A stretch of 60,685 nucleotides of DNA, taken from Candidatus Babeliales bacterium. GTDB lineage: Bacteria; Babelota; Babeliae; Babelales; JABCYS01. Below, in pieces: positions 51,001 through 54,000 of the stretch. How positions within the stretch are numbered: the stretch's first letter is position 1; the number at the start of each line of letters is the position of its first letter. Location of the stretch: NCBI GenBank assembly GCA_016929235.1, contig JAFGJD010000005.1:156168-216852 (forward strand), read 5' to 3'. A program made the position numbers.

Positions 51001-54000
51001 GACAACGCGAACTACTCCTTCAGGCCCTATAACTGACTCTTGCTGTTGTTCAGCCGGTCGCACCCAACCTTTGACTGTTCTGTATACTCCTGGAACGGTC
51101 ATATAGATCAATGCACCTAGAACACCCGCATTGACGACACGACCAATCCAAAGTCCCTTGCTGTGTGCGCTCTCAATATGAGCACGTTCTTCTTTGATGC
51201 GTGCGACGCTTGGACGAGCAAAATGGAGTTCATTGCCGCACGCACCAAATGATTGGAGTACTATACATACAACCAATAGCTTTCTGAACAATTGCATATC
51301 GAATAACCTTTCCGTTTACTGTACACCAATAAGTCCTTGCTCCTTGAGAATATCGGGAGCAATGTTATGGCGCGTCCACCCTGGTTCAAGAACATAGTGT
51401 CGCTCTAGTGAACCATCTGCATGTTTGGTAATTTCCACCTTATAATTTCTATACGATCCTTGCCCTTCAGATTCCAATGCAATCATGCCAGAATAGTGCG
51501 TTGCATGAATACACATACTCGATGGTAATTTACCAAGCTGCTGTGCATACCAATGTGAAAGCTCTTCAGCTTGATCAGGAGCTGTACCCCTGAACATTTC
51601 ATCGATAATACAGAAGGTAAATGCTTCGCGTGGCATCGACATAATTGCATGCAAAAGAATTTTTGCGCGATTTACTTCGGCAGCAAACAATGATAATCCA
51701 CGTTGTACATCATCAGACACATCCATATACGTAATGATTGTGCTGAATGGAGTTAACACTGCACGACGTGCCGGTGCTATACCAAGCGACTGTGCCATGA
51801 CTAATGCTAGCGCAGTTGCCTTGCTGATGGTTGATTTGCCACCTGTGTTAGGACCCGTAAGTATTACGTTGCGTGCTGCATCAGAGCCGCCCATGGTAAT
51901 GGTATTGGGAACAACTGTCTGTGCATTTACCAATGGACTCCAGAATTCTTCCAAATGAAGGTATGGCGTTGATGCATCGACAAACTCAGGGAAACAATAC
52001 GTTACACGTTCTGCTTCAAATTCTTTGACTAAACGAGCAGCAGACAAGTACGCGTCAAGCTTACCTAACGCCTGAAAGATCTTGACCCAGAAATAACGGG
52101 TTTCAAACATCAGACGGTTTGCAGCAAAGATACGTCCTGAGTTAGAGAAGAATGAACTTTCACCTTTAAATGTCCCGGTCTTAAGAAGCGAAACGAGTTC
52201 GCGGACATCTTCAGAAATTTTGTATTTTTTGTGATCGGCATTTGTATCTTTTTTGAGTGCAAATAAACGCATAATTAACTGTGTCTCAGGAACAGCACGA
52301 ACAATACCAGGCTGATCTTCCAATAGATCTGCAACGACTTCCATCTCATCAAGCGTACGTGCAAGCGTCATAAGATCTTCTTGTAAGCCCTTTTGGGTTG
52401 CAACGGTAGCTCTCCAGTTTTTAAAGAAGTTACCAATCGTCTTTGGGGTATCTTTGATATATTCGGTACCCTTACGCAAGCCTTCTACTTTCCTATGCAA
52501 CCAGATGGCACCAAAAAGGATACCTATGCCGCCTACGGCCGAAGTAGCCACAGCTCCAGGAAGATGAGCGCCCGCAAACTGAGCTATTGATCCAGGAACT
52601 AGGGCAGAAATATTACCAGGAGCCGCCCGTAGAGCTGCCAATCCAGAAACAAAACCTGCCGCTCCATAGCGCATCTGTTGTAGCGGCGAAGTCACAAGAC
52701 GTCGAGCCGCAGATCTACCCGCTCCCAACCCCTGACCAAGAGCTTTCCATGCCGGCCACGCAAAGGTCAGCCACGCAATCGTACTAAAAGGACTATTTAT
52801 ATTGTCCCACACATTAATCGCAAACAACGCGCCAGGACTCTTGTCTAAACGATCCGTTGCAGGCTTTGCTGCATGATAGAGCACTTCACCAAGTCCGGGA
52901 ATCTCACGATATGATTCTATTGTGGAACTTGTATAAAATTGACTTGCCATTTGTTGGCGTCCATAACGCGCATCTAAAAAGAATGGTAAGAAAGAATCTT
53001 CAGCAACTTTGACACTGTCCATAGTATGATCAAGCGCATCAAACAACGCCTGGTCATGGACAAGTTGCTTTACAACATTTTGACGTTTTTGAAGAACATC
53101 GATGGTATCACGAGATTCAACCAACATCCCTGCCAATGCGACCTCACCAAAGATAGACTTGGTTCTGTTAATTGCTTTAAAAAGATTACCTTTAACAAAG
53201 GTCTCAAGATCTGCACGGGTATCATCACCAACAATACGCCGCGTCCGACCGAGAGCTTGCTTCACATTTTTTTGCTCAGCTTCCCAGAAAAGCTGTAACA
53301 CTGTTGCTGTTTTTTGAGCATGCCCCAACTTGGGTTTCATTAAGGCTTTATAGTTGCCGGTTTCTGCCAAAAATTCTTGTTCCTTGAAGTTAGGTTGAAA
53401 CGCTTCAGCTGGAAGCATTTCATAGGCAAGAACCTCATATACAGAAGGCAATTTGGTTGGTGCTAATTCTTGAGCAAGAGCCTCATTTGATTCAAGCTCA
53501 AGATCACTGATACTCGCAATATCTGCAGCGGTTATAGCACTGTCCTGTGCAAGAGCAACCGGCATTTGCAATAGCATAATCCATACAAGAAACAAACTAG
53601 CTAGACGTTTGAACGTATTCATAATTGTCCGTCCTCATCAATTCTTACTAAACCATTTTTTTGAAGAATGCATCCGACTCCCGTGCAATCGTAGCAACGA
53701 TTCTGTGGACTTCATTCATATCGATTGATCCATTATCAGCTTGAGCAAGAACCTTATTTAATTTCGGATACATACCATAGGCAATATAACGGTAAAAACA
53801 GTTATATTTTGGTTGTTTCACCATATCAGAATTTTTACCAATCGTATATTGGACAAAGCCTATAGAAGCCTCAAGCGCCTTGGTTGCCTTATTGATTTTG
53901 TCAATAAGCGTGTCAAATACCATAGGCGTAATTTCGCCAACTTCCATTAGGTCTTCAACATAGGCTTCAAGATCATCAAGAGCCTTTTTCGACTTCCTCA

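Follow-up and report, generated by a model that had tools for sequence, protein, structure and literature searches.

An expanded set of MutS8-type ATPases in a Babeliales bacterium: predicted export, a hydrophobic insert in domain III and an apparently lost clamp

What use does an intracellular bacterium have for a MutS-like ATPase with a hydrophobic N-terminus and no mismatch-binding domain, when its genome already encodes MutS and MutL? The question is raised by a gene lying in a 60,685-nucleotide stretch (the window) of the 809 kb genome of a Candidatus Babeliales bacterium. Its reading frame (Table 1) and two paralogues at C1:28119-30221 and C8:37595-39598 were confirmed as first annotated, and so was the presence of a canonical mutS, five ORFs away in the window, and of MutL (C2:230588-232114). 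The ORFs around the gene are signal-bearing and have no Pfam family, and PADLOC returned no match for the 768-aa protein. Elsewhere the genome encodes three secretins and two GspF/PilC proteins, a set that does not tell type II secretion from type IV pili, as well as ATP/ADP translocases and ankyrins; the last two, together with homologues named after Dependentiae or Babeliales, point to an intracellular lifestyle.

Table 1. Features of the MutS8-type gene and the canonical mutS in the window; residues refer to the 768-aa protein.
Feature	Residues	Position in window	Strand	Basis and remarks
MutS8-type ATPase gene		51316..53622	(-)	768 aa; ORF call and family placement
Predicted Sec signal peptide	1-25	53548..53622	(-)	Basic n-region, hydrophobic core, ALA end; KD 2.15, hydropathy rule
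Variable helical N-terminal extension	26-128	53239..53547	(-)	Pfam blank, pLDDT partly low; no MutS domain I/II
Domain III core, first half	129-215	52978..53238	(-)	Matches MutS1 268-356
Insert	216-408	52399..52977	(-)	Helical, net charge +10; in domain III loop equivalent to E. coli MutS ~350-357
Uncharged Gly/Ala-rich stretch (44 residues)	333-376	52495..52626	(-)	Candidate membrane hairpin; pLDDT <50 over 299-366
Domain III core, second half	409-534	52021..52398	(-)	Begins at E. coli 357
Conserved loop	484-497	52132..52173	(-)	Presumed lever/clamp deletion site; junction from helix order
ABC-type ATPase (domain V)	535-768	51319..52020	(-)	PF00488 and motifs
Canonical MutS1		46085..48688	(-)	Pfam domains I-V; repair covered by this gene

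The domain content held up. In the 768-aa protein Pfam recognized MutS_V (PF00488) at residues 586-750 (E 1.2e-20) and a sub-threshold piece of MutS_III at residues 143-205; among the three copies, MutS_III rose above the cut-off only in that of contig C8, and MutS_I, II and IV were absent. Domains I and II gave no Pfam match in the 768-aa protein, whereas the genome's own MutS1 matched them with E 9e-40 and 3e-8, and domain IV (PF05190) likewise gave none. The intact Walker A motif, the hydrophobic N-terminus and hydrophobic segments at residues 244 (C1 copy) and 357 were recovered as well.

The first-pass annotation had treated these proteins as a family private to Babeliales. They are not: they fall in MutS8, a subfamily that giant viruses, Amoebophilus and Cardinium have as well, and the gene under study almost certainly belongs to it. 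The nearest ESM Atlas clusters were from Nucleocytoviricota. A fold search with an AF2 model gave as best match among viral structures Yasminevirus A0A5K0UA92 (E 7e-24); a Tetraselmis virus 1 protein annotated "MutS subfamily 8" (A0A2P0VMZ2; E 3.3e-19, TM by target 0.62, 643 columns) ranked ahead of MutS7 and of every PDB match. The best of the latter was MSH2 (E 2e-15), in keeping with the likeness described earlier. Profiles of the bacterial and viral proteins aligned over 369 columns, mostly N-terminal of the ATPase (E 1.6e-70). Three quick IQ-TREE analyses of the ATPase region recovered the MutS8 clade with SH-aLRT values of 98, 97 and 99; MutS1, MutS2 and two sets of short proteins made of domains III and V lay elsewhere in the trees, and one long-branched bacterial sequence (P0373) fell just outside the clade. 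The viral set formed one clade (SH-aLRT 94, 99 and 95). Its position differed between models: under LG+C20, in a search left unfinished and with three long rows omitted, the viruses nested among Babeliales-type sequences (support 94), and under LG+G4, with five rows omitted, they were sister to all bacteria (support 70). Group labels such as Babeliales-type and virus-type rest on score and tree. MutS8 reportedly consists of domains III and V only, as Ogata and colleagues are said to have described it in 2011, and this is the composition found in the 768-aa protein by Pfam and superposition. Aasi_0916 we take to be a founding member, and two Cardinium sequences in the trees (P0409/P0413) are taken, from genus and architecture, as orthologues of CAHE_0017/CAHE_0267.

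Other identities were tried and rejected. NCBIfam scores fell below the cut-offs for MutS1 (105.9 against 480 and 84.5 against 641.7), for MutS2 (TIGR01069, 80.1 against 400, with no Smr match) and for the KamC reactivase (NF052383, 76.7 against 300). Grouping of the Babeliales-type set with MutS1 was rejected (p-AU 0.0013). Twelve MutS3/MutS4-like representatives (L057-L124), picked by length and hydropathy and not from Lin's reference set, formed two other clades (SH-aLRT 99-100).

Within the phylum the family is widespread and often multi-copy, and it is not universal. Every sampled genome had been credited with copies; when a profile built from 25 homologues was run against 151 genomes of the phylum, 134 gave a best E of 2e-52 or lower, but the remaining 17 reached only 1e-25 to 1e-39 and seem to lack the family. 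Of five of these that were searched again, four yielded MutS1-length frames only and one a divergent 1126-aa copy. Relatives outside the phylum had been said to match residues 500-765 alone; instead, near full-length profile matches were obtained in Aasi_0916, Cardinium, Oligoflexales and giant viruses (E 1e-97 to 1e-146), the most divergent viral subclade tested still giving E 6e-50. A viral copy and an alignment free of Babeliales sequences, used as queries, recovered Aasi_0916, two Cardinium proteins and proteins from Oligoflexales and "Deltaproteobacteria". Scans of IMG/VR returned full-length relatives, with at least 577 matches from one subclade, and a GTDB scan returned at least 601 stretches. 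Four full-length GTDB matches without a Babeliales label came from small multi-copy genomes with ATP/ADP translocases and for that reason were not counted as lying outside Babeliales.

How the protein departs from a repair MutS became apparent from its fold. The AF2 model (pLDDT 78.1, pTM 0.76; below 50 at residues 21-56, 85-89 and 299-366) superposed on MSH2 with Z 33.4 and rmsd 3.2 over 430 aligned residues (VIA). The first half of domain III was placed against MutS1 with an hhalign probability of 97.7, E208 aligning with the DLER glutamate. The helix following the insert was not placed by sequence profiles, hence the use of a folded fragment: residues 388-768, modelled at pLDDT 94.1, superposed on residues 357-785 of 7oto_A (VIA Z 26.4, rmsd 3.2, 324 residues in a 429-residue span), and most rows gave similar ranges. 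This relocates the insertion, which had been assigned to the position of the MutS clamp. The post-insert helix (residue 409) superposes on E. coli MutS 357, N-terminal of the lever, and the insert precedes by about 75 residues the start of domain IV in the genome's own MutS1 (433-522). C-terminal of the insert site the superposition skips at least 105 residues of E. coli 357-785. We read these as the levers and clamp, apparently deleted at a site separate from the insert; VIA gives ranges only, and the exact junction is placed accordingly in a conserved loop by helix order. Among 165 Babeliales-type sequences, F485, S490 and G496 of this loop are conserved in 95%, 93% and 98%, and G496 in 98%, 91% and 97% of the Babeliales-type, Amoebophilus-clade/other and virus-type alignment sets. 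Loss of the levers and clamp would make MutS-style clamping of DNA unlikely.

The catalytic apparatus, by contrast with the clamp, has been kept. Walker A (590-597), D637, S644, E649, Walker B (D674/E675) and H709 are conserved at 89-100%. Walker A is present in every member of the same three sets (165/165, 44/44 and 58/58), Walker B in 158, 43 and 57, and the H-loop in 156, 43 and 55, each about 95% or more. Conservation is not confined to the C-terminal 300 residues, as previously thought, since G159, R180, Q181 and E208 of domain III are conserved at 92-100% in the 165 sequences.

The N-terminus sets bacterial and viral members apart. We used a crude rule that calls a signal-like N-terminus when an uncharged 11-residue window of KD at least 1.8 follows a K or R, any Met among residues 1-70 being allowed as the start. 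By this rule 144 of 162 Babeliales-type proteins were positive (three of the 165 have no start and were left out), along with 31/38 of the Amoebophilus/Cardinium clade and all five from other bacteria. None of 58 virus-type proteins was, nor any of 127 unique complete IMG/VR proteins (from 183 viral loci), and only 1/78 MutS1 and 2/82 MutS2 proteins were. Several of the 18 Babeliales-type proteins that fail appear truncated or mis-started. The rule also flags 335 of the 628 ORFs of this genome, membrane proteins included, so that such a signal is a common background here.

Published predictions agree in part. In supplementary file 9 of PMC4378268, Babela_gene_1085 is positive in SignalP 3/3 with TMHMM 0, and Babela MutS1 has SignalP 0; file 2 lists COG0249 copies as two in Babela and three each in TM6, Amoebophilus and Cardinium. 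In the available part of that article's main text "MutS" is not used. Mann et al. 2017 (PMC5698495, as far as its accessible text goes) identify Cardinium CAHE_0017 and CAHE_0267 as MutS8 proteins, moderately and highly expressed, with predicted signal peptides, and list them as candidate effectors acting on host DNA; the homologues of A. asiaticus are given there as lacking a SignalP signal, in conflict with our rule, which flags Aasi_0916. The main text of a 2026 preprint on Cardinium effectors does not contain MutS. According to the accessible sections of Pagnier et al., Babela has no secretion system other than type II, and those of Deeg et al. 2019 report for Chromulinavorax signal peptides on 44% of proteins and mitochondrial remodelling. 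Taken together, the protein is probably exported, judging by its sequence and that of its relatives.

Whether it also enters a membrane is less clear-cut. The first-pass annotation had described the insert as hydrophobic. In the present protein it has, besides the Gly/Ala-rich stretch, a second uncharged run, rich in Trp, at residues 274-292. Strong hydrophobicity of the insert belongs to a minority of bacterial copies: 67 of 165 Babeliales-type proteins reach KD 1.6 and 43 reach 1.8, as do 2/39 of the Amoebophilus clade at the latter threshold. All 58 virus-type proteins and 119 of the 127 IMG/VR proteins reach 1.8. Inserts carry a net positive charge (median +4 to +5); that of the 768-aa protein, taken alone, found no usable ESM Atlas match. 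Thus, of the earlier proposal of an exported or membrane-bound role other than mismatch repair, export is favoured by the signal contrast and the Babela SignalP calls, and a non-repair role by the missing clamp and the presence of MutS and MutL; insertion into membranes, predicted from hydropathy, is well supported for viral members only.

The surroundings of the gene were informative in viruses. At 30 phylum loci, within about 1.5 kb, bacterial MutS8 genes had no conserved partner and no secretion operon beside them, and MutS1 was not among their neighbours. In 82 of 128 unique viral loci with at least 2 kb downstream we found a gene for a protein with an N-terminal membrane helix, a coiled coil and a C-terminal SAP or HeH-like domain, in 78 of the 82 as the first or second gene downstream. 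Pfam detected SAP in all four such neighbours scanned (E 1e-7 to 1.5e-4); HeH reached an E of 0.0035 only, below the Pfam cut-off. The association spans two distant viral subclades, but when the viral sequences are clustered at 65% identity it occurs in only 17 of the 41 clusters; 66 of the 82 loci belong to a single cluster, and conserved viral gene order could explain the link. An A22-type resolvase also occurs among the viral neighbours. A search of this bacterium's genome found no homologue of the SAP/HeH protein.

How such an enzyme might work can be outlined as follows. Sec would take it through the inner membrane. Because domain III is split by the insert and its halves have to come together in the same compartment, the ATPase as a whole would end up outside the cytoplasm. 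The periplasm has no ATP; given the conserved active site, this suggests an enzyme working beyond the outer membrane, with type II secretion or vesicles as the possible outer step. The viral proteins, synthesised in the host cytoplasm, have no signal, which suggests that compartment for the bacterial ones as well. There the protein may dimerise through domain V like other MutS proteins, ATP opening and closing the dimer. The moving part would then be the insert rather than the clamp: a hydrophobic, mildly basic helical hairpin that could bind or enter a host membrane (vacuole, ER, mitochondrion or viral factory) and remodel or tether it. On balance we favour, with modest confidence, an exported MutS8 ATPase dimer in the host cytoplasm, probably at a membrane. 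Of its parts, action in the host is likely, action at a membrane falls a little short of an even call, and tethering of DNA to the membrane is doubtful.

A soluble exported enzyme is the most serious competitor, though a rather improbable one. Its target would be DNA or chromatin of the host, or some other complex of protein with or without nucleic acid, as has been proposed for Cardinium MutS8; alternatively it would be a remodeller resembling MutS2 or KamC. The insert would then be a substrate-binding module. The positive charge of the insert, its often mild hydrophobicity in bacteria and the TMHMM count for the Babela copy all suit this idea, as do the SAP/HeH proteins and A22-type resolvase beside viral copies and the existence of non-repair MutS-like ATPases (NCBIfam KamC; also the accessible text of PMC9164220). 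It fits poorly with the absence of the clamp and mismatch-binding domains, with the membrane-grade insert of the viral proteins (119/127) and with a viral neighbour that is itself membrane-anchored.

We consider it improbable, to a greater degree, that the protein works in or on the bacterium, either as an uncleaved anchor with a cytoplasmic ATPase, for example a nucleoid tether in an unusual division, or in the envelope. Signal-like N-termini are after all very common in this genome, no bacterial partner or secretion operon accompanies the gene, and A. asiaticus homologues are reported to have no signal peptide (PMC5698495, in its accessible part). Against this, basic residues before the hydrophobic core and an A-x-A end after it argue for an N-in, C-out orientation, SignalP is positive in Babela and, from the accessible part of the source, in Cardinium, and a copy number running from none to several in varying neighbourhoods fits host-interaction genes better than a division machine. 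A back-up or virus-style mismatch repair protein, suggested by the MutS fold (VIA Z up to 33), by the canonical mutS five ORFs away and by the proposal, in the available portion of Hingamp et al. 2013 (PMC3749498), that the giant-virus genes MutS7 and MutS8 guard genome integrity and maintain large viral genomes, is very improbable given the lack of domain I and clamp, the signal peptide, the MutS1 and MutL of the genome and the absence of MutS1 within about 1.5 kb at the 30 phylum loci.

The reading we prefer, export to the host cytoplasm and action probably at a membrane, bears on MutS8 as a whole. The subfamily is used as a giant-virus marker. Its missing mismatch domain and clamp, its hydrophobic insert and its membrane-anchored DNA-binding neighbour argue against a genome-protection role, and the contrast between signal-bearing bacterial and signal-less viral copies suggests the host cytoplasm as their shared workplace. 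Carried further, this leads to a speculative and, in our estimate, unlikely proposition, that MutS8 is not a DNA-repair gene even in viruses but the MutS motor rebuilt as a membrane machine, with clamp arms lost and a hydrophobic hairpin set in domain III; its task in the eukaryotic cytoplasm would be to arrange membranes, and perhaps DNA, about replication compartments, both for giant viruses, which pair it with a DNA tether of the membrane-anchored SAP/HeH type, and for unrelated bacteria living inside cells, which have given it a signal peptide and expanded the family. A shared workplace would make this one enzyme family an instrument common to giant viruses, Dependentiae, Amoebophilus and Cardinium, a notion open to testing. 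It also offers a concrete candidate for the host remodelling seen in infections by Dependentiae, whose predicted secretome is large and for the most part without explanation. The loss of the clamp, the signal contrast and the viral neighbour make its function directly testable. The literature searched, from which Ogata 2011 and Krishnan 2020 fall outside and may cover part of these matters, yielded no report of the clamp loss, the Babeliales expansion or the viral SAP/HeH neighbour; the contrast in signals between bacteria and viruses was not found in it either. Secretion of MutS8 has been proposed once, for Cardinium (PMC5698495).

Comparison with known systems places the protein as follows. 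It resembles MutS1 and MSH2-MSH6 in the core and ATPase fold and in the catalytic motifs, but these retain their mismatch-binding domain and connector as well as levers and clamp, lack the insert and almost never satisfy the signal rule (1/78). With MutS2 and KamC it shares the lack of domains I and II, and they offer a precedent for use of a MutS ATPase outside repair; yet its scores against them are 80 versus 400 and 77 versus 300, it has no Smr domain, and MutS2 is cytoplasmic. MutS2 also keeps its lever and clamp. The short MutS3/MutS4-like proteins, so called by their architecture of domains III and V, likewise lack domains I and II and keep the ATPase; some have a hydrophobic mid segment, and a 438-aa cluster superposes over 431 residues. 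They differ in forming the separate clades described above, in profile E values of only 1e-44 to 1e-51 (two tested) and in a length of 409-572 aa. Lin et al. 2007 (PMC2190696) defined MutS3 and MutS4, in the text available, as families made of III and V; the available parts of PMC6459981, PMC6163766, PMC3620924, PMC9164220, PMC11043551 and PMC5751055 hold mentions only. The closest counterparts are the viral MutS8 (A0A2P0VMZ2), Aasi_0916 and the Cardinium proteins, alike in having domains III and V only, a full-length profile match, membership of one clade, the position of the insert and the motifs flanking it, and, for Cardinium, signal peptides (PMC5698495, accessible text). Viral copies differ in an insert that is less variable and more hydrophobic, in having no signal peptide and in often adjoining a TM-SAP/HeH gene that the bacterium lacks. 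Unlike the MutS8 proteins known so far, those described here have multiplied, most genomes sampled across the phylum carrying several copies that diverge fast: the Babeliales proteins are a new, expanded set within the known MutS8 subfamily.

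In giant viruses the gene for MutS8, the MutS-related ATPase with domains III and V, belongs to a conserved cluster (loci L003-L017, L159-L177 and L198-L277) together with genes for a TM-coil-SAP/HeH protein and a small Cys-containing protein bearing the DGRxFTDY motif. The latter is present at 116 loci and gave no family over the cut-off in a Pfam scan. One viral subclade adds an A22/Ydc2-type resolvase and DUF5767 to the cluster. At viral loci L286, L292, L295 and L300, the gene downstream of MutS8 shares the TM-coil start of the TM-coil-SAP/HeH proteins, with a small C-terminal domain carrying a SENDG-like motif in place of SAP/HeH.

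The paralogue at C1:28119-30221 of the Babeliales genome may have had a separate origin, since its GC content is low (0.379, where genes average 0.427 with an sd of 0.025) and it lies far from the other two paralogues in trees. In the divergent member G012, whose signature motif is degenerate, Pfam detected a GIN/DUF2807 domain (E 5e-10) within the domain III insert, which shows that this site tolerates foreign domains. A further member, G040, is altered in its signature and H-loop region and is possibly a decaying or inactive copy. In Bacteroidota, single ORFs at L074 and L107 were seen to fuse two short MutS-like III+V units; in their relatives the two units form adjacent gene pairs.

Features discussed in this section
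Feature	Location	Strand	Length (aa)	Remarks
ABC ATPase	window 55739-58372	+	877	
Signal-bearing protein	window 54810-55742	+	310	Gln-rich stretch; Pro/Tyr-rich C-terminal tail
G012	L304:530-3907		1126	divergent family member
G040	L305:278-3031		918	family member
Fused double III+V ORF	L074:3422-6073		883	
Fused double III+V ORF	L107:3323-6061		912	

Within the window, a crude hydropathy rule assigned signal-like N-termini to nine long ORFs flanking mutS and the MutS8 gene (43666-55742). Pfam scans of these nine, and of a 147-aa ORF at 49888-50331, returned no family over the cut-off. The ORFs at 43666, 44521 and 45237 have similar double-hydrophobic leaders (signal, then WxxA..LLL) and may constitute a paralogous secreted family. 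The 877-aa ABC ATPase presumably resembles UvrA. The tail of the 310-aa protein contains PPAY repeats, which we take to be similar to WW-domain-binding PY motifs; a possible role of this protein is the recruitment of a host ubiquitin ligase.
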